This document shows, one piece after another, positions 4,553 to 52,598 of a DNA stretch of 64,000 nt; within the stretch, counting starts at the first letter, position 1; the number at the start of each line of letters is the position of its first letter. A program made the position numbers and the translations under genes. Source of the DNA: Paenibacillus foliorum (GTDB lineage: Bacteria; Bacillota; Bacilli; Paenibacillales; NBRC-103111); the NCBI RefSeq assembly GCF_013141765.1, contig NZ_WHOD01000062.1, positions 18,696 through 82,695 on the forward strand, in the 5' to 3' direction. Under the pieces are notes generated by a model. That model worked only from the letters and a program-made list of their open reading frames with translations. It ran no database searches and was not told the DNA's origin.

Positions 4553-7500
4553 TTGAAGATGTATTCCAAGCTTTTTCATGTATGGTTAGTTGCCCTATTA
4601 CTAAGCAGTATCCTCCCGTTCCATGTATATGAACATCAGGCTTATGCGGCAGATGCAGCCAGAAAAACACTAAACGTTAACAAAACACTAGCAGCTCCAG
4701 TTATTGACGGAAAGTTGGAGGAGTCCTTTTGGGCAGTTGATCAGACTTTACAAGTCCAAACGGGCAATGGCCCTTTTAAGGATACAAAGTTTGGGATGCT
4801 GTGGGACAATAAGTATCTTTTTATCGGTGTGAAGGCCGCTGACGATACTCCCATCTATAATGCTCCGGGAAATTGGTTTGAACAAGACAGCATTAATGTT
4901 TTTGTTGATCCTACCTTGCACAGATCAGCGCCTTTTGCTGCGGATGACATGCAGATGGGTTTAGTTTATCAGCCAGAAACGACCACGCCTGAATTCCATT
5001 TCGGTGCAGCACTGAGCAATCATAGCGGCAAAGACGAAAAGAAGATCTTAAGAGCGATCAATAAGACAGCAGAAGGTTGGACACTGGAAATGGCCGTGCC
5101 TTGGGACATGCTGAATTTTGACCCATTATTGAAGAAGCAGCTGGGTTTAGAAATTACTGCCGGTGACCGCTATGGCACAGACTCCACTCAAAATAGATCG
5201 AGCGCTTGGAGCGCCTACAATGAATCGACATTTTGGAACAACACAGCTGGTTATGGAGTCATCACTTTGGTGGATGATCATCCGATTCCGGGGAGTGTAA
5301 ATACAATACTCCTCCAGGAAAATTTCGATGGCATTCCGGCGGGGCAAATTCCTTATGGTTGGAAAACGGATGCAAGCGCGGGAAGCAATTCGTTTACCGT
5401 TGTAAAAGATACTTACGGGAACGGAAGAATATCCGTTGACGTGAATGGCACCAACAAACAGAGCCGAATTTTCGCTCCTGTCCAATGGGATAACTACATC
5501 ATCGAAGCAGATCTGCGGTTTGAAAGCGTCCTGAACAGCGCAAGATGGGCTTCGTTGATATTCCGTGCGCCTTCCAGCGCGCTGCTGCCGTATAATCAGA
5601 TGGCTGTAAGACAAAACGGCACTTACGAGATTGCCTACAGAAAAACAGATGGTAGTTGGTCTGTACCTGTGACCGGTACATGGGGCAAGACACTGGCATT
5701 AAATTCCTATTACTCAATGAAAGTAAGGGTGTTCGATAACAACGTCAAGGAGTATATCAAGGCAAAATCCGATACGAATTATTCTTTGCTGACAGATAAA
5801 AGTTTGACTGCAGAATTACTTGAAAGAGGGAAAATCGGGTTTCAGGCGGACCAAAGCAAGATATCGTTTGATAACCTAAAAGTAACGAGAATAACGGCCG
5901 ACCGGCTGAATGCAGCGATTCCGACTACCGCGGAAGCTTTGACCGGTCCGATAAGTGTAACAGGCAGCGTCTATTATTCGGACGGAATAACGGATGTAGC
6001 GGCCTTTGACCGTGTTAAATTTTATTCCTCAGACGAAAGCATTGTTAAAATCATCAACAATAAGTTGTACCCGCTTAAACAAGGCAAGGCAAACGTGAAG
6101 GCGGTTTATTACAATGCGGAAGTGTCGCAGGAGGTAACCGTAACCCCTTCCTTGACTGGGGCTAAGGTGGTATCGATCAAGCATAATGAAGGTTATGCTC
6201 TGGCTGTCTCGGGTCAACCTCTTGATCTGAATAGCTTGTCGTTTCAAACGGAGCTAAATGACTTTTCATCCCAAACCCTGCCAGGTGGGCAATTATCGTG
6301 GACCTCCGGCAGCGGCGCCGTTGTCTTTGAGAATGGGACCTTCAAGGTTCAGCAAAAAGGGGTTTATCCGGTTACTGGGCAAAAGGATGGGGCAGCTGTT
6401 TCCATACTTTTCATAGTCAAAAACCCAGGTGATGCCGAATATGTACTCTATGAAGAAAATTTTGATGCCATTCCGGAAGGCACCCTGCCGCAAGGCTGGA
6501 CAAGAAAACAGGGGACAACAGCCAGTGCAGCAACAGTGAAATCAGGAGCATTCGAAATGAATGCCTCTGCGGCTCCGGATAATCCATCCAGAGTGCTGCT
6601 CCCCGATTATTTAGGCTTGTTCGGCAACTACAAGATTGAGGCGGATGTAACTCATCTTACGGTGAACAACAATGCAAGATGGAATGCGATCATGTACCGA
6701 ATTCAGAACAATGACTACCCTTATTACCAAATGGCTGTCAGGAAGGATGCGACGGCTGTTAATGGAGTTGAGTTTTCCGAGAGAACCCCTGCCAATGGCT
6801 GGAATGTCATCGATACAGGTTCATTCACAGAAGTGATCGATGCTGGGAGGCTGTACCGCTATACCGTCAAAGCATACGGAACCAGGGTACAGGAATCTAT
6901 CGATAACAAACCGATCATCGACACCGATCAAGCAGCAGCTTATACGAAAGGACGCATTGGATTTCAAGCCGACGGCAGCGCCATGAAACTGGATAATATT
7001 CGGGTTACTCTGCAGCAGGAGCCCTTACCGCCTGTATCCAACGGCCATTTTGTTCAAGTTACTGAACCGGAAACCAAAATCTCGATGGCCGCATCTATAG
7101 CAACAGAGCTCAAAAGCTCTCAGGAGCTGGTCGATCTCACCGGTCCTACCCTGCCGGCAACAGTTGTTTTGCATATCGGTGAAGGTTTGAAGGTAATGGA
7201 ACCGTCCCGTATGAAGGAAATGGGAAGTTTGGATTCGGTTCTATCCGCCATTGGAACACGTATGATCCCTGCCTTTTATGTGAAGGATGAGCAGACGGTT
7301 GACGAGCTGGTCGAATATTTGAAGAACAAGGGCATAGAGGATGCTGATGTTATTTCCGACAATGGAGAGCTTGTCAAAAGAGCCAGAACCGCTTACCCGA
7401 TCATTCGCGGTATCGTGGATTTCAGTACGAGGGGCAGCTTGACTAAAGAAGATATGCTTGACGTTCGTAGAAAAACAACGATCAGCTTGGCGAAGATTGC

Positions 7501-9976
7501 ACTGCTCCCCCAAAACGCCGCTTCCCCCGAGAACGTATCTTATCTCCAAAAACGGACGATCGTGGTCTGGGCAAAGGAAGCAGCAGCACAAAGGGAAAAA
7601 AGCGTTACTCTCCATCAATTGATTACGTCCGGAGTCGATGGGATCTTAACCGACTCGCCGAACACGGCATTTACTGCATTAAAGGTTTATTCCAATAATA
7701 CAACTCTGATTCGCAAACCTTATGTGATCGGACATAGAGGAGTGCCTTCGAAAGCACCGGAGAATACGATAGAGAGCAACGAATTGGGTCTGGACTATGG
7801 GGCGGATTACATTGAAAATGACATCTACCTCTCCAAGGACGGACATTTGGTTATTCTCCATGACGGAGCGTTGGAAAGGACGACGAATGGTACCGGCTTT
7901 ATTGAAGATTACACCTTGGCCCAGCTAAAGGCGCTGAATGCGAACAAACCATTCCCTGTGGGATTTCCCGATGTAAAAATTCCGACATTAGAGGAACAAA
8001 TTGACCTTGCCCGGAAAAAAGGCAAAATGGTTATGTCAGAGATGAAAACCGACAATCCGGCAGCCGTTGATGCCTACGTCAAGCTAATTAAGGATAAAAA
8101 TGCGGAAGATGTCATGGATACGATGTCATTCTCCGGCAATCAGTTGAAGCGGTTGGCTGAGTTAATGCCTGAAATGCCTTTGGGTTTATTGACAAGCGGG
8201 CTTGCCAGCGAATCGAATGTGAACAGCTCCTTGAGGAAAACGCTGAAACAGGTTCAAAGTCTGAACGTTACTTTAAATACGAGCTTTAGTGGATTAGGCA
8301 AAAACTTTATGGAGGCCTCCAAACACCGTGGTATTATCATATCGCCTTGGACCTTTAATGATAAAAAGAATTTCATTCAATTTTTTCTGTATGGCGCTTG
8401 GGGCTTGACTACTGATTATGCGTTCTGGGCGGCAGATTGGGCAATTGCAATCAAGCCGGAGAAAGCCAACCAGCAAATGATGAATGGTGGAAGCCTTACA
8501 TTATCCGCTGAAATCGAAACCTATAACGGGACAAAAACGGCTATTACTCCGGAAATTGTCATGCTGGACGGTCAAGATTTGATTGAAGTGAACGGAAATA
8601 AAGCAACCGCAAAGAAACCGGGTACGGCAACTATCCTTTTGCGTTATACGGCTTCTATTGATGAGGCTAATAAGTACGACATCTATTCACAGCCAATATC
8701 TATCGAAGTAAAGCCTGTACCTAGAGATCATCGTCCATCAGGAGGTTCCTCTAACGGAAGCAACTTGAATCCAAGCGTCGGCAGCCAGGACGGCCAGCCT
8801 GGTAATGCGGTGATTAATGTAGTGAACAACGACAGGGTTGAGGTTGACGTATTAAGGGGGGCCTTCCAATCGGCATCCAAAGTAGAAGTGAATCATGCAG
8901 GAGAGAAGCTGCTGCTGCCTGCGGAGGGATTAGTTGATGCGGTCCTTAAGCCTGGTGCATTATTAGTGATTACAAGTGAGAACGTTACTTATCAGCTGCC
9001 GTTATCCGTTCTAAAGCTTGAAGAATTGCAGCGGCAATTGGGTACGATCCTGAACGACCTATGGATCAGCATCACGATCAAAAAGCTGATCGGCAGCGAA
9101 GCCGCCGCCGTGAGGGATGCCGTGGCTAAATCAGGCGGTACGCAAATAGCCGATACCGTAGAGTACGATGTTCAGGCGGTCAGCAATAACGGTAAATCGG
9201 CCCGCCTGACCTTCGGTTCCACCTATGTTTCCCGCAGTCTGGTGCTGAACAAGGCTGTCGATTCACTGAGAGCGACAGGCGTAATGTATATGCCTGAGAC
9301 GAAGACGCTCCGATTCGTCCCCACTATCTTTGAAGCTAAGGATGGTAAGACTACAGCAACCATGCAACGTAATGGCAATAGTGTGTATTCGGTGGTTGAG
9401 AATAATAAGAGCTTTGTAGACATGACCAACCACTGGGCTAAAGCGGATGTCGAGTTGCTAGCTAACAAGCTTGTAATCGATGGAGTCAGCGACAACAGGT
9501 TCGATGGCGAACGCAATATCACACGCGCAGAATTTGCAGTGCTGCTTGCCCGCGCATTAAGTTTAAGCACTTCGTCCGGGGCAAAGAATGAGTTTAGCGA
9601 TCTCGCCTCAACGGCTTGGTATGCCGGAGATGTAGCAGCAGCGACCGAGGCAGGTATGATCAACGGTTATGAGGATGGAACCTTCCGCCCGAACCGGGAA
9701 ATAACACGTGAAGAACAAGCGGTAATGATTATACGTGCTTTGTCCTACGTAAATATGGATGTAAAGGTCTCCCAAGCCCAACAAGACGAGATCCTTGGAC
9801 GTTACAAGGATGTTGACAAGATTGTTTGGGCAAAAGCAGAGGTTGCGGCTGCCGTTAATACCGGTTTGATAAACGGAATGACGACAGAAGCTCTCATGAT
9901 GGATAGTTATTCAACCCGCGCCCAGTCCGCAGTGACTTTGAAACGACTTTTGTACAAAGTGAACTTTATCAACTAG
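4553..9976 (+). CDS. 1807-aa secreted, SLH-anchored multidomain glycerophosphodiester phosphodiesterase (signal peptide, CBM9-like domain, two DUF1080/LamG-like modules, Big_2 Ig-like domains, GDPD catalytic domain, three C-terminal SLH domains)
   Basis: GDPD signature HRG...ENDIYLSKDGHLVILHD. Internal duplication ENFDGIPAGQIPYGW / ENFDAIPEGTLPQGW ... FQAD ... DN(L/I)(K/R)VT. C-terminal SLH repeats (DGTFRPNREITREE, MING). TTG start at 4553 or ATG at 4559. Confidence 0.85.
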   Translation: MKMYSKLFHVWLVALLLSSILPFHVYEHQAYAADAARKTLNVNKTLAAPVIDGKLEESFWAVDQTLQVQTGNGPFKDTKFGMLWDNKYLFIGVKAADDTPIYNAPGNWFEQDSINVFVDPTLHRSAPFAADDMQMGLVYQPETTTPEFHFGAALSNHSGKDEKKILRAINKTAEGWTLEMAVPWDMLNFDPLLKKQLGLEITAGDRYGTDSTQNRSSAWSAYNESTFWNNTAGYGVITLVDDHPIPGSVNTILLQENFDGIPAGQIPYGWKTDASAGSNSFTVVKDTYGNGRISVDVNGTNKQSRIFAPVQWDNYIIEADLRFESVLNSARWASLIFRAPSSALLPYNQMAVRQNGTYEIAYRKTDGSWSVPVTGTWGKTLALNSYYSMKVRVFDNNVKEYIKAKSDTNYSLLTDKSLTAELLERGKIGFQADQSKISFDNLKVTRITADRLNAAIPTTAEALTGPISVTGSVYYSDGITDVAAFDRVKFYSSDESIVKIINNKLYPLKQGKANVKAVYYNAEVSQEVTVTPSLTGAKVVSIKHNEGYALAVSGQPLDLNSLSFQTELNDFSSQTLPGGQLSWTSGSGAVVFENGTFKVQQKGVYPVTGQKDGAAVSILFIVKNPGDAEYVLYEENFDAIPEGTLPQGWTRKQGTTASAATVKSGAFEMNASAAPDNPSRVLLPDYLGLFGNYKIEADVTHLTVNNNARWNAIMYRIQNNDYPYYQMAVRKDATAVNGVEFSERTPANGWNVIDTGSFTEVIDAGRLYRYTVKAYGTRVQESIDNKPIIDTDQAAAYTKGRIGFQADGSAMKLDNIRVTLQQEPLPPVSNGHFVQVTEPETKISMAASIATELKSSQELVDLTGPTLPATVVLHIGEGLKVMEPSRMKEMGSLDSVLSAIGTRMIPAFYVKDEQTVDELVEYLKNKGIEDADVISDNGELVKRARTAYPIIRGIVDFSTRGSLTKEDMLDVRRKTTISLAKIALLPQNAASPENVSYLQKRTIVVWAKEAAAQREKSVTLHQLITSGVDGILTDSPNTAFTALKVYSNNTTLIRKPYVIGHRGVPSKAPENTIESNELGLDYGADYIENDIYLSKDGHLVILHDGALERTTNGTGFIEDYTLAQLKALNANKPFPVGFPDVKIPTLEEQIDLARKKGKMVMSEMKTDNPAAVDAYVKLIKDKNAEDVMDTMSFSGNQLKRLAELMPEMPLGLLTSGLASESNVNSSLRKTLKQVQSLNVTLNTSFSGLGKNFMEASKHRGIIISPWTFNDKKNFIQFFLYGAWGLTTDYAFWAADWAIAIKPEKANQQMMNGGSLTLSAEIETYNGTKTAITPEIVMLDGQDLIEVNGNKATAKKPGTATILLRYTASIDEANKYDIYSQPISIEVKPVPRDHRPSGGSSNGSNLNPSVGSQDGQPGNAVINVVNNDRVEVDVLRGAFQSASKVEVNHAGEKLLLPAEGLVDAVLKPGALLVITSENVTYQLPLSVLKLEELQRQLGTILNDLWISITIKKLIGSEAAAVRDAVAKSGGTQIADTVEYDVQAVSNNGKSARLTFGSTYVSRSLVLNKAVDSLRATGVMYMPETKTLRFVPTIFEAKDGKTTATMQRNGNSVYSVVENNKSFVDMTNHWAKADVELLANKLVIDGVSDNRFDGERNITRAEFAVLLARALSLSTSSGAKNEFSDLASTAWYAGDVAAATEAGMINGYEDGTFRPNREITREEQAVMIIRALSYVNMDVKVSQAQQDEILGRYKDVDKIVWAKAEVAAAVNTGLINGMTTEALMMDSYSTRAQSAVTLKRLLYKVNFIN

Positions 9977-10005
9977 CTTGTCTGAATACCAAGTATGTTT
10001 AAAAG

Positions 10006-10053
10006 AAAAAGAACCCTTGAGAAGATTAGAAGATTCAAGGGTTCTTTTTCTTT
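10006..10053. terminator. Bidirectional intrinsic terminator between the convergent GDPD gene and the receiver gene
   Basis: AAAGAACCCTTGA-13 nt-TCAAGGGTTCTTT, flanked by an A-run upstream and a T-run downstream. Confidence 0.65.
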
Positions 10054-10070
10054 GATTGGAACATTTATTC

Positions 10071-10433
10071 TTACTTCAGAAATGCCTGTATCTTCCCCAA
10101 CAGCCGATCCAGTTCGACGGGCTTCGTATCGAAGTCATCGCATCCCGCCTGAAACGCCAGCTCCTTATCACTTGCCATCGCATGAGCGGTCAGAGCAATG
10201 ATGGGAATCGCTTGTGTTCCCGATTGCGCCTTGAGCTGCCGAATGGCTTCCCACCCATCAAGCACAGGCAGGCTCAAATCCATAAGAATGAGCTCTGGAT
10301 TCTCTGATCTTGCCATAGCAACACCCTGCTCTCCATCGACAGCTATAATAACTTCGAAGCCTTTGCGAATCAAGCGCCGGGAAAGCATGTCTCGGTTCAT
10401 CTCATTATCTTCCACCAAAAGTATTTTGTGCAT
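10071..10433 (-). CDS. Single-domain response regulator (CheY-like receiver only)
   Basis: 120 aa; LLVEDNEMN...LILMDLSLPVLDGW...KPV receiver motifs; AAGGAG RBS; last gene of the H-NOX operon. Confidence 0.85.
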   Translation of the reverse strand: MHKILLVEDNEMNRDMLSRRLIRKGFEVIIAVDGEQGVAMARSENPELILMDLSLPVLDGWEAIRQLKAQSGTQAIPIIALTAHAMASDKELAFQAGCDDFDTKPVELDRLLGKIQAFLK

Positions 10434-10536
10434 CCTCGTGCTCCTTCTTACTGCTTTGAGCTTCTTGAACGTCCTTAGCGCTCATGCCGCAGCTTAAGTG
10501 TTGTTCCTTATTTCATCGGGTCTTGCTTCAGTCGGT

Positions 10537-12234
10537 TTATTCGATCCGGTCAATGGAATCAGCAACCAGACTGCTAACTTCCTTGAGCAGCGCTGCGCGG
10601 TCCAACGCACCCTTCTGAATAATTTTCTTTACGTAACCATTCAGCCTAGCACGATCTTCTGCTGTAATCGTTTTTGCCGTTACAACGACAATTGGAATCG
10701 TGCGCCACCCTTCTTTTTTACGCAGCTCCGAAACGAACTGGAAACCATCCATTTCGGGCATCATTAAATCGAGCAGGATTAGCTTAGGTACTGACTTTGC
10801 TATACTTTTCAAAGCAATGCGCCCATTTCCGGCCTGAGTTGCTGTATAGCCTTCCTTCTCCAGCAATTTCGTCATCATTAAGCTTGTCGTCACATCGTCC
10901 TCGATAACAAGCACTGTATTGGTACTTCCTTTAGGAACATACTTACCTAAAACAGCGATCAATTGCTCACGATGGATGGGTTTCGTCATAAACTCGGAGG
11001 CGCCTAGGGCATATCCCATCTTTTTATCATTAGTCAATGATAAGATGATGACCGGAATCTCCGCCAGTTCAGGATCATTCTTTAGTTCGGTCAAGACCGA
11101 CCATCCATCCATACTCGGCATTAAAATATCCAGGCATATGACGCTCGGACGCAGCTTCTTAGCTAATCTAAGCCCTTCCTCGCCGCTTCCTGCAACCGCC
11201 ACCTTCCAGCCTTCTTTGCCAAGATAGCGTTCAATCAGCTGCAGATTGGCTGGCTCATCGTCAATAACGAGGACAGTGACCTCGCCTTCCATTTTCTCCG
11301 TCGGCCGTTCCTGCAACTCATCGTGGGATTCCTTCTCCCTCTCAGCAAGAACAGGGAGCCAGCAAGTAAAAGTGCTGCCTTGACCGTATACACTATCCAC
11401 TTCGATCTTCCCGCCTAATATCGTACAGAAATGCTGACTAATTGTAAGCCCAAGGCCAGTGCCTCCATATTTACGTGTCGTTGATGAATCGGCTTGAGTA
11501 AATGGCAAGAATAGCTTATCGATTTGCTCCGGCGTCATACCAATCCCTGTATCCGCAAAGCTGAATGTGAACCCTGGTTGACCTCCCCGTTCTTCCTGAA
11601 TGACACTTAACCCAATCGTTCCTTCTTTAGTAAATTTGCTGGCGTTACTTAATAAATTGAATAAGATTTGCCGCAGCTTCGTTACATCCGTGTGCATTTC
11701 ACCTTCGATGTAGGAAACCTCGATCCGGTTGCTGTTCGCTTCCACCAGAGGCTGCACTGTTGTGAGTACATCCTGAATTAACTCCGGTACATTGCAGGCT
11801 TCAAGATACAGGTCCATTTTGCCGGCTTCAATTTTGGAAATATCCAAGATATCATTAATAAGTGCAAGCAAATGCTTGCCTGCTTTATTTATTTTTTGCA
11901 GATCATCGACAAATACGGGCTCACCCATATCTTCGGCTTCTTCTTTAAGCATTTCACTGTATCCGATAATCGCATTCAGGGGTGTTCTCAGCTCATGGCT
12001 CATGTTGGCTAGAAACTGGCTTTTGATCATATTCGCTTCGATAGCTTCATCGCGAGTCTTCGCAAGCTCGGCCGTTCGCCCCTTGACCATTTCTTCCAAG
12101 TGGTCGTTCAACTGCACCAATTCCTGATTGATATAAAAAATTTCTCGTGTCTTCAGCTCGGCGATTTTTTCCGCTTCTTTGCGAGCTGCTTTCTCTCTTT
12201 CCAAATGCCTTCGGAGGACGTCCAGCTCGGTCAT
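10537..12234 (-). CDS. Cytoplasmic hybrid sensor histidine kinase (coiled coil, HisKA, HATPase_c, REC, REC), an HnoK-like partner of H-NOX
   Basis: H-box MSHELRTPLNAI, then N, G1 (DTGIGM) and G2 (GGTGLGL) boxes, and two complete receiver domains each with the acceptor Asp. No TM segment or sensor domain. The start overlaps the H-NOX stop as TAATG. Confidence 0.9.
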   Translation of the reverse strand: MTELDVLRRHLEREKAARKEAEKIAELKTREIFYINQELVQLNDHLEEMVKGRTAELAKTRDEAIEANMIKSQFLANMSHELRTPLNAIIGYSEMLKEEAEDMGEPVFVDDLQKINKAGKHLLALINDILDISKIEAGKMDLYLEACNVPELIQDVLTTVQPLVEANSNRIEVSYIEGEMHTDVTKLRQILFNLLSNASKFTKEGTIGLSVIQEERGGQPGFTFSFADTGIGMTPEQIDKLFLPFTQADSSTTRKYGGTGLGLTISQHFCTILGGKIEVDSVYGQGSTFTCWLPVLAEREKESHDELQERPTEKMEGEVTVLVIDDEPANLQLIERYLGKEGWKVAVAGSGEEGLRLAKKLRPSVICLDILMPSMDGWSVLTELKNDPELAEIPVIILSLTNDKKMGYALGASEFMTKPIHREQLIAVLGKYVPKGSTNTVLVIEDDVTTSLMMTKLLEKEGYTATQAGNGRIALKSIAKSVPKLILLDLMMPEMDGFQFVSELRKKEGWRTIPIVVVTAKTITAEDRARLNGYVKKIIQKGALDRAALLKEVSSLVADSIDRIE

Positions 12235-12785
12235 TATATGGACTCCTGATGGGTCAGAATAAAAAGTGTCGCCGCTCCAGTACTGTCCGTAAAATCCTCA
12301 CGTTTAACATCGACGTTTTCACCGTAATGGCTAATACATCCGAGAATCAACCCCTCAGCCAAATCAGCGAATGGACGCGAGGAGCGGTATATCATTTTCA
12401 GCGTTCTTGGGATCGACGTATCGCATTCGAATCCTGGCAGCTCTGCATCCGGGTACAATTTGCGTACTTCAACATGAATATAACCGTCAATTTTTTGCAA
12501 AAACTCAAATATCGTAAGCTCCGAATCCACAAATTGCGGATACAACTCAACAAGCTGTCCGAACAAATATTCTCCAAAGGCCCGAACCAAATCAGCAACC
12601 GGAATACCCGTCTGTCCGCTCAACTGAACAACAAGTCGGATTATTTCATTATGGTCATACGTTCCAACCGCCGTGTAGCTGCCACCGGATGGCAAATTGG
12701 AAGCTTCGATAATTTGATCCGCAATTTGTAATGAAAACTTACTTTCAACCATTTCAATAAATGCCGTAAATACGATTCCTTTCAT
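12234..12785 (-). CDS. hnoX: Stand-alone H-NOX (heme nitric oxide/oxygen binding) sensor protein
   Basis: N-terminus MKGIVF as in H-NOX proteins. Proximal His in the YIHVEVRKL context. The heme-propionate Y-x-S-x-R motif is present as IYRSSRP. Size is 183 aa. ATG at 12785 has a GAGGGAGGG RBS; the GTG at 12794 is an alternative start. Confidence 0.85.
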   Translation of the reverse strand: MKGIVFTAFIEMVESKFSLQIADQIIEASNLPSGGSYTAVGTYDHNEIIRLVVQLSGQTGIPVADLVRAFGEYLFGQLVELYPQFVDSELTIFEFLQKIDGYIHVEVRKLYPDAELPGFECDTSIPRTLKMIYRSSRPFADLAEGLILGCISHYGENVDVKREDFTDSTGAATLFILTHQESI

Positions 12786-12812
12786 TAAAAGCACCCTCCC
12801 TCACTAATTTAT

Positions 12813-13853
12813 TTATGAAACACCCATCTTTTGCACGATGCTTTTGAATGCGTCCACAACCTGAGGATCAAAATGCAACCCCCGCTGGTTATCAATTTCA
12901 GAGAGTGCTTCGCTTACAGTCCAAGCTCTTTTATAAGGTCGCTCATGTGTCAATGCATCGAAAAAATCAGCAAGAGCCACGATACGTGCAGCAAAAGGAA
13001 TTTCCTCACCCTTCAAACCCTTCGGGTAACCGGTACCGTCCCACTTCTCGTGATGCGCCAGAGCAATCTCTTCTGCAACCTTCAACACCGGAAACAGGCT
13101 TCCTTCCAAAATGCTAGCACCAATCGAAGTATGTGATTTCATATATTCAAATTCTTCTGGGGTAAACCGACCCGGCTTCAGTAGAATTTCATCGGGGATA
13201 CCGATCTTACCTAGGTCATGCAACGGCGCGGCACGGCGAATCAATTCAACCTCTTGCTCGGGAAGATCCATAGTTTGGGCAATCATTCCTGCCATTTCTC
13301 CAACCCTATTCGTATGCTGCCCCGTCATATCATCGCGGAACTCTGAGGTACGTCCTAGCAGATGTAAAATTTCAACTTGTGCCTTCTCCAGGTCGGCCGT
13401 TCGTTCGCGCACCCTTTCCTCCAGATGCTCATTTTGATGCTGCAGTTGTAAATGAAGGTGTCGTGTTTTCAGCAAATTGTTAATGCGCAGAATAACCTCT
13501 GTTTTATCAAACGGCTTGGTTAGAAAGTCATTAGCGCCTTCTTGAAGCGCTTTCTTCTTAGCCTCCGGCGTTACATCAGCAGTTAGCACAAGAATCGGCA
13601 AATAGCTTCCGGCTTTATCCATTTCCCTCAATCGTTTTAACGCCTCGAACCCATCCATCCCCGGCATATGTAAATCTAGCAATATGATATCGGGTGCAAT
13701 CTCTTGAAAAAGCGGTTCAATCTCCTGTGAGTTCATAGTACTATGTAAGTTAGAAAACCCAGCTCGGCGCAGAATTCGATCTAGTAAAGTTATGTTATAT
13801 TCCTGATCATCTACAATCAGAAATTTTGCAAGTTTTGACCAAGTTCCATCCAT
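12813..13853 (-). CDS. Response regulator with HD-GYP phosphodiesterase output domain (REC-HD-GYP)
   Basis: Receiver domain (IVDDQEYN...[13 protein letters not shown]...KPF) followed by HD ([11 protein letters not shown]) and GYP ([14 protein letters not shown]) motifs. Confidence 0.9.
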
Positions 13854-13872
13854 ATTTAAAACCCCAATCTAA

Positions 13873-13934
13873 TCTATCATAACGGATAGTTAAATTTTGC
13901 TATAGGTTAAGTTTATTGTCAATTATTATCAATA
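13873..13934. promoter_or_regulatory. AT-rich promoter region of the H-NOX operon carrying two inverted repeats
   Basis: CTATC-ATAACG-GATAG (13873-13888) and TTATTG-N11-CAATAA (13912-13934), directly upstream of the REC-HD-GYP start. Confidence 0.3.
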
Positions 13935-13989
13935 AACTAACAGAAATATTAATATCAAATACAATTTCTGCAAAACGACTGAAGCTCGC

Positions 13990-14240
13990 TATGTACATTC
14001 GGGGCATATCTTGGAGCTGCAATCCGAATGTGGCTTCTGTTAACAGCTAGAGCCACATCATCGCCGTTTCACCCGGCACTGTGACCATCACTGCAAGATC
14101 AACGGATGGCGCTTCCGTGCCAATGCAAGGTGACGATCACCAACTCATCTGATACAATTGTTGATGGAAGAAACGTGTCCGTGAATAAAGCCTCTCTATC
14201 CCTCAAGGTTGGAGAGCATGGTACCATGTTCGGTAAAGGT
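13990..14240 (+). pseudogene. Decayed remnant of a surface protein with tandem Big_2 (bacterial Ig-like) domains
   Basis: Translation gives ...NPNVASVNS*SHIIAVSPGTVTITARSTDGASVPM... and, in another frame, VSVNKASLSLKVGEHGTM. Both match the Big_2 consensus but are interrupted by a stop and frameshifts. No intact ORF remains. Confidence 0.45.
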
Positions 14241-14414
14241 AACATAGGGTAACACACAGCAACATACGGCAACGCTTACATCTCTTTCGTTACTTGGAAC
14301 AAATATGCGCCGACAACACTGATAGCTCGAACCGAAGCGGCTGCTACCATCGTAAGAATGCTGGACTCTAGAAAGTAATTCCTCTTAATCCATACAGTTG
14401 AAGGAGCACTCAGA

Positions 14415-15529: not shown

Positions 15530-18154
15530 CTAGTGAATCAACCCCAACCATTTCCAATAGGGGATACAACCGACTGCAACCAGCCACACAGCAGCCGCGT
15601 ATCCGATAGCAACAATTTGACCTTGACGATGGCTGAAGGCCTTTTCTTCCGAGCTGTAGTAGGCCGTCAAATAGGTTGGTGATTGATAACTGAAGAAAAA
15701 GGGATCCGTCGATAACAAAATGATAAAAACTAAGATCCACGGATGGATTCCCACCGTCTCCGCTAGTGGGAGCAGCGCGGTAACCAGAAGTATGACCGCC
15801 GGATCATCTCTAACAATAAGGGTCACCACGAAACACAGCACCACAACTGCCGTTAGAAAAATACTGGGTGAGGAAAGAAATACAGACATATGAGTATTGA
15901 GGAATCCGGTTAACGACTCCACAATACCTAGCTCCTTAGCCGCATTAGCAAAGCTAAATGCAACCCCGAGGAACAACAAGAATGTCCAATCAATACCTGT
16001 CGTAAGCGTCTGCCGATCCAATACTCCGCATATGACGAGAACTGAGAAACCTAACAGCATAACCCACGTACTGTCAATTCCATGTAAGGGCTGAAGGATC
16101 ATAAGCACAATACAGCCAAGCACCGTGCATACGGAAATACGCTCCTCTCTGGATAAAGCCCCCAACAGCCGCAGCTGCTCATCAAGAACTTTGGCGGAAA
16201 CCTGCTTAACCGATGGCGTTCGCCGAAACATAACCGATAATACGGTAACCATAATTGCAGCAAAAACTATAAAAGCAGGAAAGGCGTACAGCGCCCATTC
16301 TATCCAGGTGATAGGCTTATCTGACGAGACAAGGCCGTAGGCCATAACATTGGTATAAGATCCTGTTAACACAAAGGGAGCTGTAAACCCGTAAAAGATC
16401 ATAGCGGCAAGCCCCAGCCCCGCAGCGCCATGGCTTCTTTCCTTGAACCCCATAGATTCTGAAAGGGTCTGGGCAATGGGGACTCCTAGCGATACTTTGG
16501 CTGAAGAGGATGGGATCAAGGGATTAAGAACGATACCGCCTACAATAATCCCCCACAGCTGCCCCCGGTAATGGGGGGGAAACCGTTTGAGCGCATGCAA
16601 GGAAAGCCGATATAAGATGCCTGATTTCGTAATAACCGCACTGAGCGCCATAATAAAAATCATATACAGCCATGTCGTCGAAGCGAAGCCCGATAACGCA
16701 ACCTCTGAGCTGACTAAACCACCTAATACCCACAGCATAACCATGCCTAGGGCAACGATGTAGTCCGGTATTATGTTGACGATCCATAGAACGACCGCAG
16801 CGATCCCAATACCTATAAATACCATTCCATTGTGGGATAAGCCAGCAATAGGCGGAATGTAGTAAAAGATAAGGATCGCTACCAAAGCCGCAACCACCGC
16901 CAACCCTCTTGACCATTGGCTGGGCTTAATTAGCCGACTTGCCCGTTCTGCGAAAAACTGACTTTTTCTAATGGTTAGCTTTTGTTGGGCAAGCTGAACG
17001 ACCCGGTCGTCATCCTGTTCGGCTGAAGTATTCTCCGACAGGGATCGAGCAATAGCCTCGGCCCTTTGCAAATAGATAAGCGCCGATTGTTTATTATGAA
17101 GCAAGCGGCTTAATTCTGCGCCCCATTCGTAGACGGATAGGAGCTGCCCGGAGGTAAACACAGATTCATCTTGCTTCAACACTTCTTCCACAACAGCAAT
17201 CCCCGACTCTGGCGCATACTTCAAGCATAATTGAACATAGGTTTCCAACGAAGCATAGCGCGAACCCATCCTCATAGCCTCGGAATAACGTCTAAGCAAT
17301 CGGAAAATTTCTTCCTCCTGACGATCGGATAGCGTGTTCTCGACGGTATGCCTAATAGCATCATGAACCTTCTCCCAGTCTTCCTCCTCCGCGTATAGCG
17401 CAATTAAGGCATGCCAATCACCGCAGCCTCTATAGAGGGCGGCAGCCTCCTTCACCCACTGGTCTCTTTTGCTGTAGCCGTATTGCGCGGTAGCCATTTC
17501 CGAAAGTGCTGACTTGAACGCCGACTTTACGCTGAACCACTCTCGCTCTTGAAAGTCATAGGATAGGAACCTCGTAAGTACAGGAGATCCCTTTAACTCC
17601 TCAGATACGGAAAGCTGGAAGGTATGCTCGACCAACATTGGGCTGATTATCGGTATCTGGCTGCACCATAAGATAAAGTGAACGAGCCTGTCTGGCAGCT
17701 GTTCCAATTCATGCAAAATCCACTGTGACTTCGTTTCCTTGGAGGCTTGCAAACGATCATTGGTCATGATCAGCCTCTGTGAAAGCAGTCGGATAAAATA
17801 AGTAGAAATCGACGGATGCTCCGAAGTCAGCTGGTCGAAGATTTCCCTATCTATCTCCAGCAATACCGAATCAGCCGTAGCTACTGCCGAAGCCGACCTA
17901 ACCTCTCCCGTCAGTAGGGCCATCTCCCCTATACTATCCCCTTCATTTAGGTAAGCAAGAGACTGTCTGGTCTCATTGTTTTGGAAGAAGAGCTCTATGG
18001 TCCCTCTTTCAATAATATACATGCTATCGCCGGGATCGCCTTGCTCGAACAAGGTCTCACCTTGAGGAAGATGCTGCCTATCCAGCCTTCCTAGAAGCTT
18101 CGCCAGCATAATATTAGAGAGACCCTTGAACATCTCTATATCTGTTATTTTCAT
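15530..18154 (-). CDS. Cyclic nucleotide-binding domain fused to an SLC13/DASS-family anion permease
   Basis: N-terminal cNMP domain (FKGLSNIMLAKL...GEMALLTGEVRSASAVA). A soluble helical/TPR-like linker of about 250 aa follows. The C-terminal ~450 aa carries 10 or more TM segments, typical of CitT/SLC13 permeases. Confidence 0.8.
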   Translation of the reverse strand: MKITDIEMFKGLSNIMLAKLLGRLDRQHLPQGETLFEQGDPGDSMYIIERGTIELFFQNNETRQSLAYLNEGDSIGEMALLTGEVRSASAVATADSVLLEIDREIFDQLTSEHPSISTYFIRLLSQRLIMTNDRLQASKETKSQWILHELEQLPDRLVHFILWCSQIPIISPMLVEHTFQLSVSEELKGSPVLTRFLSYDFQEREWFSVKSAFKSALSEMATAQYGYSKRDQWVKEAAALYRGCGDWHALIALYAEEEDWEKVHDAIRHTVENTLSDRQEEEIFRLLRRYSEAMRMGSRYASLETYVQLCLKYAPESGIAVVEEVLKQDESVFTSGQLLSVYEWGAELSRLLHNKQSALIYLQRAEAIARSLSENTSAEQDDDRVVQLAQQKLTIRKSQFFAERASRLIKPSQWSRGLAVVAALVAILIFYYIPPIAGLSHNGMVFIGIGIAAVVLWIVNIIPDYIVALGMVMLWVLGGLVSSEVALSGFASTTWLYMIFIMALSAVITKSGILYRLSLHALKRFPPHYRGQLWGIIVGGIVLNPLIPSSSAKVSLGVPIAQTLSESMGFKERSHGAAGLGLAAMIFYGFTAPFVLTGSYTNVMAYGLVSSDKPITWIEWALYAFPAFIVFAAIMVTVLSVMFRRTPSVKQVSAKVLDEQLRLLGALSREERISVCTVLGCIVLMILQPLHGIDSTWVMLLGFSVLVICGVLDRQTLTTGIDWTFLLFLGVAFSFANAAKELGIVESLTGFLNTHMSVFLSSPSIFLTAVVVLCFVVTLIVRDDPAVILLVTALLPLAETVGIHPWILVFIILLSTDPFFFSYQSPTYLTAYYSSEEKAFSHRQGQIVAIGYAAAVWLVAVGCIPYWKWLGLIH

Positions 18155-27908: not shown

Positions 27909-27941
27909 AAAAAAAAGCAGGGACTAAACGCTCCCCTGCTC
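27909..27941 (-). terminator. Intrinsic terminator of rlmN
   Basis: GCAGGGGAGCG-TTTAGT-CCCTGC hairpin followed by TTTTTTTT on the minus strand; it overlaps the stop codon. Confidence 0.6.
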
Positions 27942-29003
27942 TTGCTTATTTTCTTTGATTTGTTTGCTTCTTAACTGACCGCAAGCAGCATCTATATCTG
28001 TCCCATGTTCAAGCCGAACACTACAGCTAATGCCTTGCTTCTTCAGCGTATCATAAAACGCTCGCACCGTTTCATGCTCACTTCTTTGATATTGATCGAG
28101 CTCATCCACTGGATTATACGGAATTAAATTAACATTTATCAGCTGCCGTTTATCTTGAATTAAGTTAGCGAGCTCCAGAGCATGCTCCCTGCGGTCATTC
28201 AAATCCTTAAGCAGAATATAGCTGAGCGTAATCCTCCGATTCGTCTTCTCCAAATAGTAATCGATAGCCTGCATTAGCTTCTCAATTGAATAAGCACGGT
28301 TTATTTTCATAATCTGTGTTCGAAGCTCGTTATTGGGCGCATGTAAGGAAACCGCCAAGTTAACGGGCATTTGAATATCGGCAAACTCCATAATTTTATC
28401 AGGAAGGCCACTGGTCGATACCGTGATATGCCTTGCGCCAATAGCTAGTCCTTTGTGATCTATAATAACCCTCAAAAAATCCACCGTATTTTTAAAATTA
28501 TCAAAGGGCTCGCCAATCCCCATCACTACAACGTGGCTTACCTTTTCATTTTGATTCGCTTGATCAAGATGAAGTTGGACCTTCATAATTTGTTCCACAA
28601 TCTCACCGCTAGATAGATCGCGGCTCTTGGTTAATAACCCGCTCGCACAAAAGCTGCATCCAATGTTACAGCCTACTTGGGTAGTTACACAAACCGACAA
28701 CCCATATTTATGTCTCATCAATACGGTTTCAATTAGATTACCATCCTTCAAATTAAACAAGAACTTAATCGTTCCATCTGCTGATTCCTGCTTCAAGTGT
28801 TCATTTAAGGTTTGAATGGCAAAATGATCGGCCAATAATTGAATACACTCTTTATTAACATCAATCATCTCTGAGAAATCCGTTACCCGTTTCCTATAAA
28901 GCCAATCCCAGACTTGTAAGGCTCGAAACTTTTTATGTCCATATTCCATAAGCCATGCTGTCAATTGATCCAGCGTCAGTCCATAAATGGAATCCTTATT
29001 CAT
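27924..29003 (-). CDS. rlmN: Radical-SAM 23S rRNA/tRNA A2503/A37 C2-methyltransferase RlmN
   Basis: Near-identical blocks to B. subtilis RlmN/YloN ([38 protein letters not shown]); CxxxCxxC radical-SAM cluster. Start placed at ATG 29003 (MNKDSIYGL), which has an AAGAGGG RBS. Confidence 0.85.
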
Positions 29004-29125
29004 TCGTAACCCTCTTTTCAAAAACTATAAATTCAGACCTGTTCTCTGTAACCAGCCGAAGCTAACATTCTGTTTATGATTGTCCCAAAATTCTTCTATT
29101 AAAGCAAGGGGACTTGTCGTCTTCA

Positions 29126-29968
29126 TCACTTCGTAATATCAATAAACCCTTCTCCAAACACATCACGCACATCATGAATCGTTATAAACGCATTTTTATC
29201 GGTTGCCCTAACAATCTTCTTGAGCTGGCTCAATTCCTGTTTGCTAATAACAATATACAGAATCTCTTTAGCCGTTTTGGTGTAGTAGCCATGACCATAA
29301 ATAACGGTAACGCCTCTGTCCATCAGCACATTTACTTGTTCGGCAATCTTACTCTGTTCATTCGATATTATAGTAACGGCCTTTTTCGGGTTAAGCCCTT
29401 CTATGATGAAATCCATAACTTTGGTGGCCACATATAACATCACAATAGTAAGCATTACACTCTGAGCCCCAATGATAAAATACGAAGAAAAGACAACTAC
29501 CAAATCAAATAACAACAGGGCATAGCTGACATTCCAGTCGAGATACTTGTTCGCGATTCTGGCTAGAATGGTCGTACCCGCAGTTGTACCGCCAACTCTA
29601 ATTATTAAACCTAAGCCTATACCAGTAAGCACTCCCCCGAACAGTGCGTTTACGATTAATTCATCGGAAGAAATACGCCAACCCTCCGTTAAATATAAGA
29701 AAAGAGAATTGAAGGCAACCGCAACAATCGTGTAGAGAGTGGTCGTCTTATCCAAAAATTTAAAGCCTACTAGTAATAAGCAGGAATTTAATATCAAACT
29801 TACTAATCCGGGGGACCATTGAAAAAGGTAGTAGAGAATAATGCTTGTTCCAATAACCCCGCCCTCACCAAATTCATTAGGAATCACAAAAAGATTTATA
29901 GCCAAAGCAAAGAGCATCGCTCCAACAATTATAATACAAATATCCGCTGCCTTTTTTTTCATATCCAT
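29126..29968 (-). CDS. YitT-family membrane protein (DUF161 + DUF2179)
   Basis: Five or six TM helices followed by a C-terminal soluble DUF2179-like domain; 280 aa. Confidence 0.8.
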   Translation of the reverse strand: MDMKKKAADICIIIVGAMLFALAINLFVIPNEFGEGGVIGTSIILYYLFQWSPGLVSLILNSCLLLVGFKFLDKTTTLYTIVAVAFNSLFLYLTEGWRISSDELIVNALFGGVLTGIGLGLIIRVGGTTAGTTILARIANKYLDWNVSYALLLFDLVVVFSSYFIIGAQSVMLTIVMLYVATKVMDFIIEGLNPKKAVTIISNEQSKIAEQVNVLMDRGVTVIYGHGYYTKTAKEILYIVISKQELSQLKKIVRATDKNAFITIHDVRDVFGEGFIDITK

Positions 29969-30171
29969 GTACCTTTCTCAGCTCAAAGTTCGGCCTCTCA
30001 TTAGTAATACGATTTAGTATATCACCTCTTGAACGAAAAAACAGGGCATCCATATGGACACCCCAAGAAAGCCCAAAGGGGCAGTCCGTAAGTCTATAAG
30101 ACTTGAGACAACCCCTTGAACAAGCTAGCTAATAGTATGGGCGACAATCCCTTTTGATCCGTCAAAATAAC

Positions 30172-30663: not shown

Positions 30664-30690
30664 AAGACTTTTCTCCCTTACTTTAAATAT

Positions 30691-52561: not shown

Positions 52562-52598
52562 TCCGCATCCTCACCTTCTTGAGACTCTTGCATGCACA

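Follow-up and report, generated by a model that had tools for sequence, protein, structure and literature searches.

In the Hno system of Shewanella oneidensis, as also in Vibrio cholerae, an NO-selective stand-alone H-NOX protein is co-transcribed with a sensor-less cytoplasmic kinase, and the output is hydrolysis of c-di-GMP by a REC-containing enzyme. The kinase, HnoK, is non-hybrid and has no receivers, and its regulators (the HnoB/HnoC/HnoD network) are encoded at a separate locus. The phosphodiesterase is the EAL protein HnoB; HnoD, an RpfG-family (REC-HD-GYP) protein with a degenerate HD-GYP domain, only modulates HnoB. A second arrangement is that of Silicibacter sp. TrichCH4B, in which H-NOX adjoins a hybrid kinase with one receiver, SiliHK, and in its NO-bound form inhibits autophosphorylation, whereas the phosphotransfer protein SiliHpt and the REC-bearing output enzyme SiliDGC, a diguanylate cyclase inhibited by phosphorylation, are unlinked orphans. 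Vibrio harveyi HqsK and Pseudoalteromonas HahK are grouped with these Silicibacter-type H-NOX/hybrid-kinase systems. Outside the H-NOX field, RpfC is a kinase that has its own HPt and senses DSF rather than a gas.

Here, we describe a four-gene locus of Paenibacillus foliorum LMG 31456, found in a window of 64 kb, the whole stretch of DNA that was analysed. It resembles the Shewanella system in its stand-alone H-NOX and sensor-less soluble kinase, and the Silicibacter system in the adjacency of H-NOX and hybrid kinase. Unlike either, it has a kinase with two receivers. Unlike in Shewanella, both regulators lie in the operon, which contains no HnoB-type EAL regulator and has the HD-GYP protein as its only predicted c-di-GMP enzyme; unlike in Silicibacter, this output is a predicted phosphodiesterase and a conserved lone REC is present. 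Thus, the label "Hno-type" given in a preliminary description of the sequence is only loosely right. That description had taken the host to be Paenibacillus-like, which agrees with its identity, the proteins being 100% identical to those of LMG 31456; P. foliorum is a soil or leaf Paenibacillus.

Layout of the operon

Four minus-strand genes, reading from 13853 to 10071, encode a REC-HD-GYP response regulator, a stand-alone H-NOX, a sensor-less hybrid kinase and a lone receiver (Table 1). Their shared direction, order and domain content had been recognised beforehand, and translations and Pfam searches confirm them: the domains of all four proteins (HNOB, HD_5, HisKA, HATPase and REC) pass the Pfam cut-offs with E-values far beyond chance, and the NCBI gene calls give identical products of 183, 565 and 120 aa.

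Table 1. Features of the H-NOX operon and its borders (positions in the window).
Feature	Position	Strand	Evidence or description
REC-HD-GYP response regulator, 346 aa	12813..13853	-	Pfam Response_reg 5.8e-27 + HD_5 7.9e-41
Stand-alone H-NOX heme sensor, 183 aa	12234..12785	-	Pfam HNOB 1.1e-40; MKGIVF start
Soluble hybrid histidine kinase, 565 aa	10537..12234	-	Pfam HisKA 9.5e-22, HATPase_c 7.2e-26, 2x Response_reg 5.6e-45
Single-domain response regulator, 120 aa	10071..10433	-	Pfam Response_reg 1.9e-24
Upstream region with putative sigma-A-type promoter	13854..13946	-	conserved; TTGACA, 17 nt, CAAAAT at 13922..13894
Intrinsic terminator, bidirectional	10002..10053	.	19-bp perfect stem between A-run and T-run

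The element upstream of the operon matches the consensus at 10 of 12 positions, in a consensus scan in which promoter-like sites across the region are no more numerous than in shuffles. About 90 nt 5′ of the operon are near-identical in P. radicis, and TTGACA-17-TAGAAT occurs at the equivalent position in P. cymbidii and P. thalictri; we infer that the element acts as a promoter. Every gene is preceded by a ribosome-binding site, including AAGGAG ahead of the lone-REC gene, which follows a 103-nt gap with no structure (z 0.39). An alternative GTG start 9 nt upstream of the H-NOX ATG would give a protein of 186 aa; the NCBI call and a GGAGGG site that precedes the ATG by 8 nt speak for the 183-aa form. 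The H-NOX stop overlaps the kinase start by 1 nt (TCC ATA TAATG ACC), as had been noticed earlier, and the kinase is evidently translationally coupled to H-NOX. At the other end, the terminator hairpin (dG -25.9 kcal/mol, z -6.3) is more stable than all 200 shuffles and is common to the operon and a convergent SLH-protein gene. As far as can be read from the sequence, the four genes form a single promoter-to-terminator unit. No mobile-element genes were found flanking the operon, and within the 64-kb window there is neither a diguanylate cyclase nor a c-di-GMP receptor nor a source of NO.

Heme sensor, kinase and response regulators

The H-NOX protein scores 139.7 bits against HNOB (cut-off 25.5). 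The MKGIVF start, proximal His and YxSxR motif of the preliminary description are all present; the proximal His (H104) and the motif residues Y133, S135 and R137 (Y133-R-S135-S-R137), together with P117, G71 and G145, do not vary among 131 H-NOX sequences. W9, N74 and Y140 of Tt H-NOX are replaced by F9, L74 and L142, and all 131 relatives have apolar residues here; the distal pocket is, by its residues, of the apolar, NO-selective type. The closest solved relatives are the H-NOX proteins of S. woodyi (6OCV/6WQE; 43% identity to 6OCV) and Kordia algicida (6BDD/6BDE; 38% to 6BDE), both values referring to the full length. 6BDE is a Gly variant of the Kordia protein. Both have the same heme residues as the P. 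foliorum protein and likewise lack the zinc site, although Sw H-NOX acts straight on a GGDEF-EAL enzyme and not on a kinase. So H-NOX, which has the Cys/zinc site, is only 26% identical; on alignment, its ligands C139, H161 and C164 correspond to A140, R162 and F165. P. foliorum H-NOX holds only two Cys, neither at a zinc-ligand position, and has none in the C-terminal stretch corresponding to C172.

The kinase consists of an N-terminal coiled coil (residues 1-65), a DHp domain with H80, a CA domain, REC1 and REC2, with no transmembrane segment or sensor domain in its 565 aa. The H, N, G1, F and G2 boxes are all found, and the acid pocket, read from the translation, is complete in both receivers. 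In comparisons between phyla, the 65-aa coiled coil shows 57-62% conservation, above the CA domain or the receivers. The order DHp-CA-REC1-REC2 is that of Caulobacter ShkA (6QRJ), which is among the best solved matches. ShkA REC1 is reportedly a c-di-GMP-binding pseudo-receiver, and ShkA is said to signal via the HPt protein ShpA; in contrast, both P. foliorum receivers keep the phospho-acceptor Asp, and there is no linked HPt.

Within the system, conservation is highest in the lone REC, which shares 67-68% identity with its counterparts in the H-NOX cassettes of Alphaproteobacteria and in the Cohnella and Alicyclobacillus modules. It had been called a CheY, which is right for the fold only: its top PDB matches are a hybrid-kinase receiver (7C1J), PleD REC1 and DivK.

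The REC-HD-GYP regulator shares its architecture, its active-site residues and an upstream hybrid kinase with known active c-di-GMP phosphodiesterases. Its top PDB match is PmGH (4MCW, 1.2e-55), which has GAF instead of REC; the runner-up among solved relatives is V-cGAP3, a 3′3′-cGAMP phosphodiesterase (2.2e-41). The equivalents of D183, H189, H221, D222, K225, H250, H276 and H277 are invariant in 120 HD-GYP orthologues, and so are the GYP motif and the equivalents of D305, D308, R314 and K317. The one exception is the third-metal ligand E185, a Glu in PmGH, which is Met in P. foliorum and in 70 of the 120 orthologues. Since the catalytic residues are otherwise all kept, the domain is not degenerate like that of Shewanella HnoD. 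D15, D16, D60, T91 and K113 of its REC domain are conserved, and REC phosphorylation is known to control the activity of RpfG-family phosphodiesterases (bioRxiv 10.1101/2021.11.05.467447). The protein is predicted to be a phosphorylation-controlled c-di-GMP phosphodiesterase.

A candidate NO pathway and its alternatives

The operon is probably an NO-sensing heme two-component system acting on c-di-GMP, a logic that had been proposed earlier and that fits the apolar distal pocket and the intact HD-GYP active site. Ferrous H-NOX would bind the kinase, with the conserved coiled coil at the N-terminus and the DHp domain as the probable docking site, and while H-NOX is unliganded the kinase would autophosphorylate at H80. 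The phosphoryl group would pass to the REC domain of the HD-GYP regulator and switch on c-di-GMP hydrolysis; the lone REC and both cis receivers would also accept it, and may serve as relay or sink. Binding of NO would strain or break the Fe-H104 bond, and the resulting conformational shift of H-NOX would inhibit the kinase. The regulator would then be dephosphorylated, phosphodiesterase activity would fall, and the rise in c-di-GMP would favour a sessile or biofilm state. The sign of the NO effect is assumed by analogy: in Shewanella and Silicibacter, NO-bound H-NOX inhibits the cognate kinase, with c-di-GMP as the output (PMC8846402; PMC4436077); in Caulobacter, Fe(II)-NO H-NOX gives no HnoK inhibition (PMC12329717).

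By which route would the phosphoryl group reach the regulators? Hybrid kinases usually require an HPt for relay, and a multi-step His-Asp-His-Asp pathway is conceivable, if somewhat doubtful, in which the kinase passes the phosphoryl group via its own receiver or receivers to an HPt-type protein encoded elsewhere and from there to the lone REC and REC-HD-GYP. SiliHK, also a hybrid kinase adjoining H-NOX, reaches its regulator through just such a stand-alone Hpt, and both cis receivers of the P. foliorum kinase have complete phospho-acceptor pockets. In addition, the alphaproteobacterial output protein carries its own DHp-only domain (HisKA without ATPase) before its REC, which implies an extra His step in this family. 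Against this, no HPt or DHp-only gene occurs in 12 Firmicute loci or the 64-kb window, the trio of kinase, lone REC and REC-HD-GYP recurs without HPt in Cohnella and Alicyclobacillus, and the kinase shares its operon with both regulators, an arrangement that usually marks direct partners. If the relay exists, the operon by itself is an incomplete circuit; since no HPt is linked to the operon or to the 12 related loci, its earlier description as a complete circuit is unproven.

The two ends of the direct NO pathway can be questioned as well. It is unlikely that H-NOX reports O2, or redox state via heme or cysteine oxidation, instead of NO, as considered for the proteins of Nostoc, for which heme autoxidation has been proposed as the signal, of V. 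cholerae and of Caulobacter, an aerobe in which oxidation activates and the NO-bound form is inactive. P. foliorum is itself an aerobe or facultative aerobe, but the distal Tyr network needed for O2 binding would have to lie at the positions that are apolar throughout, and the oxidation-sensing zinc/Cys site is missing. At the output end, the match to V-cGAP3 and the common Met at the E185 position could mean that the HD-GYP domain cleaves another cyclic dinucleotide such as 3′3′-cGAMP, and HnoD and some RpfG proteins, including that of Lysobacter, act via protein contacts, so that the regulator might be mainly an adaptor. Either role seems improbable: the c-di-GMP phosphodiesterase PmGH is the better match, every residue that mutation shows to be essential for its activity is invariant in the 120 orthologues, its E185A variant retains some activity, and the HnoD degeneracies (HD to SE, HHE to QLE) are not seen.

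Distribution, origin and the shared chassis

The operon is present in at least 30 species of Paenibacillaceae and Brevibacillus (about 31 named, in Paenibacillus, Cohnella and Brevibacillus), and of 12 loci compared (Paenibacillaceae, Brevibacillus and related ones), 10 keep the four-gene order; in Cohnella herbarum and P. psychroresistens, among others, the locus retains only H-NOX and kinase. It is a variant of an already known type of system, frequent in Paenibacillaceae rather than a one-off, and "novel system" was an overstatement. Widespread as it is, it has not been characterised, as the preliminary description supposed: no paper linking H-NOX to Paenibacillaceae or Bacillales was found.

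That the operon is a recent and essentially unique acquisition is very hard to credit. The nearest non-Firmicute relatives of its H-NOX, kinase and lone REC belong to Pseudomonadota, at 50-68% identity, more than would be expected of vertical descent between phyla, and the flanking genes vary between species. However, composition is native (GC 0.435-0.50, GC3 0.42-0.55 and pooled codon-usage distance 0.047, all within the range of the window), no mobile-element genes lie alongside, and close paralogues or orthologues of the REC-HD-GYP and kinase chassis occur across Paenibacillaceae. In the H-NOX tree, the 32 Firmicute sequences all group in a single clade next to Pseudomonadota. This favours an old transfer over the recent one that the suggestion of horizontal acquisition might imply; an exchange with Pseudomonadota is plausible only if ancient.

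In Alphaproteobacteria, H-NOX adjoins this kinase type with overlapping stop and start, and a REC-cyclase replaces REC-HD-GYP as the output; identities to P. foliorum are 57-60% for H-NOX and 49-54% for the kinase. Elsewhere in Bacillales the input is fused to the kinase. In the Cohnella herbarum operon L024 (order: kinase, REC, regulator), which is likewise uncharacterised, it is a membrane-embedded MHYT domain, whereas the P. foliorum sensor is a separate soluble heme protein; MHYT is a proposed gas sensor (O2/CO/NO). Identities of 65-68% to the P. foliorum proteins, for the kinase core as well as for the lone REC and REC-HD-GYP, mark this operon as the same chassis. In the Alicyclobacillus homologue, a degenerate H-NOX-like domain is fused N-terminal to the coiled coil. 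Judged by these homologies, kinase, lone REC and REC-HD-GYP are a reusable, conserved chassis, of which the H-NOX operon is one input-variant. What is newly recognised is this chassis, with its swapped inputs and outputs.

Organization of the H-NOX operon

The four open reading frames lie head to tail on the minus strand, and every Pfam domain found in them (HNOB, HD_5, HisKA, HATPase_c and Response_reg) scores above its curated cut-off. Reading frames, Pfam scores and direct reading of the DNA agree with one another and bear out the preliminary description, in which a regulator consisting of a receiver fused to an HD-GYP domain (REC-HD-GYP), a stand-alone H-NOX protein, a hybrid histidine kinase and a lone receiver follow in this order, with the stop codon of the H-NOX gene overlapping the start codon of the kinase gene as TAATG. 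The three products that were looked up are identical, residue for residue, to NCBI gene calls of Paenibacillus foliorum LMG 31456, which carry generic names only. A ribosome-binding site, GGAGGG, lies 8 nt 5′ of the H-NOX ATG, and for this reason the 183-aa product is favored over a 186-aa alternative starting with GTG. Likewise, AGGAG is found 5′ of the kinase start and AAGGAG 5′ of the lone receiver.

Features of the operon and of the loci compared with it
Feature	Position	Strand	Remarks
REC-HD-GYP	13853..12813	minus	346 aa; Pfam Response_reg 5.8e-27 and HD_5 7.9e-41
H-NOX	12785..12234	minus	183 aa; Pfam HNOB 1.1e-40, 139.7 bits against a cut-off of 25.5
Hybrid kinase	12234..10537	minus	565 aa; Pfam HisKA, HATPase_c and two Response_reg stretches
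Lone receiver	10433..10071	minus	120 aa; one Pfam Response_reg
Promoter-like site	13922-13894		TTGACA-17-CAAAAT, inside a conserved block of ~90 nt
Terminator hairpin	10002-10053		Between the operon and a convergent SLH-protein gene; 19-bp perfect stem, flanking A/T runs
Alphaproteobacterial cassettes	L018 6001-10309 (Microvirga); L019 6001-10311 (Mesorhizobium)		H-NOX, HK-REC-REC, lone REC, 544-aa DHp-REC-cyclase
Cohnella herbarum MHYT operon	L024 2232-6032		MHYT-DHp-CA-REC-REC kinase, 125-aa lone REC, REC-HD-GYP
Alicyclobacillus dauci kinase	L025 7066-9348		49% identical to the window kinase; fused N-terminal H-NOX-like domain
Split kinase of a Pseudomonadota MAG	L020 6549-8226		HK-REC1 (396 aa); rest of REC1 with REC2 (166 aa)
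Second kinase-like stretch of Bacillus sp. FJAT-28004	L009 4192-4986	opposite	Just upstream of its H-NOX operon

Upstream, the block that holds the promoter-like site is nearly identical in P. radicis, and TTGACA-17-TAGAAT occupies the same position in P. cymbidii and P. thalictri. A search for a shared upstream operator across ten species returned nothing in common except the promoter hexamers. Downstream, the terminator hairpin is highly stable for its composition (dG -25.9 kcal/mol, z -6.3). The possibility of a terminator or promoter inside the operon, ahead of the lone receiver gene, was considered and rejected, as the 103-nt gap that separates this gene from the kinase gene has no stable structure (z 0.39) and no promoter-like sites. 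The operon can be read from its sequence as a single transcription unit. The hairpin serves as a bidirectional terminator common to the operon and to the gene at 4553-9976 (plus strand), which encodes a surface protein of 1807 aa with CBM9, 3-keto-disaccharide-hydrolase-like, GDPD phosphodiesterase and SLH anchoring domains.

Two regulatory roles for the 560-nt upstream gap have been discarded. An Rfam search (E<=1) over this gap and the operon gave only chance matches on the terminator hairpin, which argues against a riboswitch or another RNA element, and the gap as a long regulatory region is at odds with the conservation of its proximal ~90 nt alone. The remaining ~440 nt (13947-14390), which separate the esterase gene from the promoter of the operon, are unique DNA missing from P. 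radicis, the closest genome; their plus-strand translation yields Big_2/SLH-like peptides broken by stops and frameshifts, so that they look like the remnant of a decayed surface-protein gene.

The neighbors of the operon are unrelated to it: an acetyl-xylan esterase, a transporter fused to a cNMP-binding domain, the large SLH surface protein and an ABC transporter. The fusion (15530-18154, minus strand; 874 aa) consists of an N-terminal cyclic-nucleotide-binding domain, about 300 unassigned residues and a DASS/Na-sulfate-symporter-type transporter, and is possibly a cNMP-gated transporter. A second cNMP binder, a stand-alone protein of 149 aa, is encoded at 32770-33219 (plus strand), and the window has no cyclase. 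At 52034-55333 (minus strand), genes for a VanZ-like protein, the D-Ala-D-Ala carboxypeptidase VanY, a histidine kinase with a HAMP domain and a regulator of the OmpR type form a two-component cluster of the cell-wall/glycopeptide type, unrelated to the H-NOX operon. A Rieske ORF had raised the suspicion of a nitrite reductase cluster at 55-61 kb, but the genes there turned out to be those of a sugar ABC transporter, an AraC regulator and GH88.

Sensor, kinase and output predicted from conserved residues

The HNOB (PF07700) match covers profile positions 1-162 of 163. The window protein is 43% identical to the H-NOX of S. woodyi (6OCV; E 5.6e-46) and 38% to that of Kordia algicida (6BDE, a Gly variant), compared with 26% to the S. 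oneidensis protein (So) and 21% to the O2-binding Firmicute reference (Tt), whose sequence was checked to be identical to PDB 1U4H. The proximal histidine (H104), the heme-distorting proline (P117) and the propionate motif YxSxR (Y133/S135/R137) align with H102, P115 and Y131/S133/R135 of Tt, and these residues, together with the hinge glycines G71 and G145, are unchanged across 131 H-NOX homologues. Which ligand would such a protein select? O2 binding by Tt is permitted by the hydrogen-bond triad W9/N74/Y140 (PMC12329717). The corresponding residues are F9/L74/L142 in the window protein, and none of the 131 relatives has a polar residue at these sites; with no distal Tyr hydrogen-bond network, it falls by sequence in the NO-selective, non-O2-binding subclass. 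Another mode of sensing has been described for the H-NOX proteins of V. cholerae and Caulobacter, that is, oxidative activation via a Cys-ligated zinc site, which in So comprises C139, H161, C164 and C172 (PMC7108781). Assignment to this redox-sensing subclass would call for three Cys and a His/Gln at So positions 139/164/172 and 161, respectively. Of these, the alignment spans 139, 161 and 164, which are A140, R162 and F165 in the window protein; the part of its C-terminal region expected to hold the C172 equivalent has no Cys, and the only two Cys of the whole protein are both away from the zinc-ligand positions. By sequence, the protein therefore falls outside the redox-sensing subclass of So, V. 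cholerae and Caulobacter. Because the heme residues are kept, the distal pocket is apolar and the zinc site is absent, the protein is predicted to be a heme-only sensor of the NO/CO type.

The kinase has neither a transmembrane segment nor a sensor domain. It starts with a coiled coil of 65 aa, followed by a DHp domain with the H-box SHELRTPLN (H80), and the N, G1, F and G2 boxes are all present; among solved structures, ShkA of Caulobacter (6QRJ) has the same domain order. Both of its receivers, as read from the translation, have the full acid pocket, the phospho-acceptor Asp, the Thr/Ser and the Lys. By these residues the kinase would be catalytically competent and dependent on an external sensor. 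How might a stand-alone H-NOX reach it? The N-terminal coil is 57-62% conserved between phyla, above the CA domain and the receivers, and is located precisely where fused sensors attach. This conservation and location provide indirect evidence that H-NOX acts there.

The lone receiver had been labeled as CheY. Among solved structures, however, it is matched best by the hybrid-kinase receiver 7C1J, PleD REC1 and DivK, CheY entries ranking far lower, and no che genes are present among the neighboring genes, so that this label is withdrawn. The receiver of the REC-HD-GYP protein conserves the phospho-acceptor set D15/D16/D60/T91/K113. As judged from such residues, the operon encodes four phosphorylatable receivers.

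With its receiver fused to HD_5/HD, the regulator is by domain composition a member of the RpfG family. Its HD-GYP domain is closest among solved structures to PmGH (4MCW; 1.2e-55), followed by V-cGAP3 and PA4781. PmGH is an active c-di-GMP phosphodiesterase with experimentally defined ligands and catalytic residues (PMC4159591), and this residue set was used for a check across 120 orthologues. [quoted passage not shown] Thus seven of the eight metal ligands are invariant, the sole differing position being that of E185, which is Met in the window protein within an otherwise typical E/D-T-G signature and is variable among the orthologues (M 70, E 22, V 8, Q 6, D 6). PmGH E185A retains some activity and RpfG also lacks the E185 ligand (PMC4159591); together with the Met, this suggests that the metal center is likely to be binuclear or altered. 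The HD-GYP domain has a complete set of catalytic residues and is predicted to be a c-di-GMP phosphodiesterase.

Signaling model and relation to known NO systems

A plausible outline of signaling, the steps of which are taken from characterized systems, is as follows: ligand-free ferrous H-NOX would permit autophosphorylation of the kinase, and the phosphorylated REC-HD-GYP protein would in turn hydrolyze c-di-GMP. NO would bind to H-NOX and alter its conformation so as to inhibit the kinase, which would decrease the phosphodiesterase activity and consequently raise c-di-GMP. That a kinase regulated by H-NOX controls the HD-GYP phosphodiesterase with NO as the signal is, by analogy, probable. 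The direction of regulation, with NO inhibiting the kinase and c-di-GMP rising, is given about an even chance; in Caulobacter, NO-bound H-NOX does not inhibit the kinase (PMC12329717). The route of the phosphate might also take either of two forms. Transfer may be direct, from H80 to the receivers in trans, with the cis receivers and the lone receiver as a shuttle or sink; alternatively, an HPt protein encoded elsewhere may carry the phosphate, by analogy with Silicibacter. No HPt was found in 12 related loci or among 54 Pfam-scanned window ORFs (the four of the operon and 50 others). Nor did these scans of the window bring up NO-metabolism or GGDEF/EAL genes.

To which of the known NO systems does the operon belong? 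Like the Hno system of Shewanella (HnoX/K/B/C/D), it couples hnoX to a sensor-less kinase through TAATG. However, HnoK is a non-hybrid kinase that phosphorylates three orphan regulators, whereas the window kinase carries two receivers; counterparts of the EAL regulator HnoB and the HTH regulator HnoC are absent from the operon and the window; and the HD and HHE motifs of HnoD are degenerate, unlike the HD-GYP domain of the window. The hybrid kinase, the lack of an EAL regulator and the non-degenerate HD-GYP domain thus set it apart from a Shewanella-type Hno system. The relay of Silicibacter and V. harveyi resembles it in having a hybrid kinase adjoining H-NOX. By analogy, the operon would work like the Hno and Silicibacter H-NOX pathways while being a strict member of neither. 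The NosP/NahK/NosR system can be dismissed, since matches to its NCBIfam models (NF053512, NF041831/2) are 187.9 bits against 400 for the regulator and 194 against 400 and 123 against 1500 for the kinase, and there is no NosP (FIST) gene near the operon. NCBIfam equivalog names in general do not apply to the operon proteins, as every match is far under its curated cut-off.

The preliminary description had also proposed the operon as a novel system, which holds in part. No paper linking H-NOX with Paenibacillus, Cohnella, Paenibacillaceae or Bacillales was found in the literature searched, and the system is on this account regarded as uncharacterized. Its kind, by contrast, is already known. 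The individual proteins belong to known families and are already annotated at the domain level in public genomes. The operon would not surprise specialists; its interest lies in a compact Gram-positive model and in the reuse of its kinase and receivers.

Distribution, origin and a reusable chassis

Homologues of the H-NOX protein number in the thousands. The closest is that of P. radicis (93%), and the next are found in about 30 named species of Paenibacillus, Cohnella and Brevibacillus (62-73%). The order REC-HD-GYP, H-NOX, kinase, REC was kept in 10 of 12 such loci, and H-NOX and the kinase were alone at the locus in P. psychroresistens and Cohnella herbarum. All-versus-all clustering of ORFs from 18 loci yielded the four genes and antisense shadow ORFs, with no conserved fifth gene; the flanking genes vary between loci.

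Horizontal acquisition, suggested earlier, does not hold as a recent event. The composition of the operon is ordinary for the window (GC 0.435-0.50, GC3 0.42-0.55), with a pooled codon-usage distance of 0.047 versus 0.038-0.074 for other four-gene blocks, and a neighbor-joining tree (no bootstrap) places all 32 Firmicute-labeled H-NOX proteins in one clade without labeled outsiders; both rule against recent transfer. In the same unbootstrapped tree, Pseudomonadota form the sister clade. Exchange between the phyla in the distant past is plausible, because identity to the alphaproteobacterial counterparts reaches 57-60% for H-NOX, 49-54% for the kinase (colinear) and 67-68% for the lone receiver. 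The gene that departs most clearly from the composition of the window belongs to the PhnA/YjdM family (43542-43883, minus strand; GC 0.29, GC3 0.175; codon-usage distance 0.153, the window maximum), and recent acquisition is more credible for it than for the H-NOX operon. Low GC (0.355-0.41) is also seen at 27924-32573, which encodes an RlmN-like radical SAM protein, a YitT membrane protein, a TM2 and zinc-ribbon protein, a 246-aa protein without a Pfam match and an SPFH/Band-7 protein with double zinc ribbons.

Comparison of loci extends the picture beyond that of the preliminary description. The best 120 REC-HD-GYP relatives listed are all from Paenibacillaceae, Brevibacillus or Alicyclobacillus. 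In Cohnella herbarum the REC-HD-GYP protein is encoded in an operon separate from the H-NOX and kinase pair (L023) of the same genome. This operon has the same chassis as the window, that is, the kinase, the lone receiver and REC-HD-GYP (65% identical over 530 aa, 68% and 68%, respectively), but differs in its sensor, a membrane-bound MHYT domain. The trio recurs in Alicyclobacillus dauci, where the domain fused to the kinase is degenerate, with neither YxSxR nor a proximal His (sub-threshold HNOB match, 2.2e-4; pairwise BLASTP 2e-7), and may be a heme-less sensor derived from H-NOX. The occurrence of the same trio with MHYT and with an H-NOX-like fusion identifies it as a reusable chassis, of which the H-NOX operon is one input-variant. 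Two further loci are ambiguous: the split kinase of the Pseudomonadota MAG would be either a natural split of the kinase with tandem receivers or an assembly frameshift, and the stretch in Bacillus sp. FJAT-28004, which shares 66% identity with the window kinase over residues 31-295 of the latter, either a fragment or a paralogue.

H-NOX, the kinase and the lone receiver also occur together in Microvirga, Mesorhizobium and related metagenomic contigs, with the same overlap of H-NOX stop and kinase start. Their output is a DHp domain (HisKA without ATPase) joined to REC and a class III nucleotidyl cyclase, with no HD-GYP regulator, so that these cassettes possibly represent an NO-to-cAMP/cGMP pathway run via a phosphorelay; no description of such a cassette was found in the literature examined. 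A wider proposal, which we advance tentatively and consider rather unlikely as a whole, is an undescribed chassis spanning phyla, in which a soluble coiled-coil kinase with two receivers and an unusually conserved lone receiver of 120 aa as an obligatory phosphate shuttle, with no canonical HPt, are combined with swappable sensors (separate H-NOX, fused MHYT or fused H-NOX-like) and outputs (HD-GYP in Bacillales, DHp-REC-cyclase in Alphaproteobacteria). If it is true, what MHYT senses could be approached directly through the H-NOX and MHYT versions (65% identical), and the alphaproteobacterial version would be an NO-to-cyclic-nucleotide pathway paralleling animal soluble guanylate cyclase through a phosphorelay. 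Reuse of the chassis offers testable comparisons concerning sensor-kinase coupling, HPt-less relays and the MHYT ligand.

Nearly all that is established on H-NOX signaling comes from Gram-negative bacteria, and to our knowledge the Firmicute H-NOX domains studied are only chemoreceptor fusions from anaerobes. Judging from the genomes compared here, aerobic Paenibacillaceae of plants and soil commonly carry a stand-alone, predicted NO-type H-NOX, a kinase and an HD-GYP protein with a complete catalytic set as one unit. The operon provides a compact model, amenable to genetics, in which to study how NO controls c-di-GMP and biofilm in Gram-positive bacteria, with relevance to colonization of the rhizosphere and phyllosphere.
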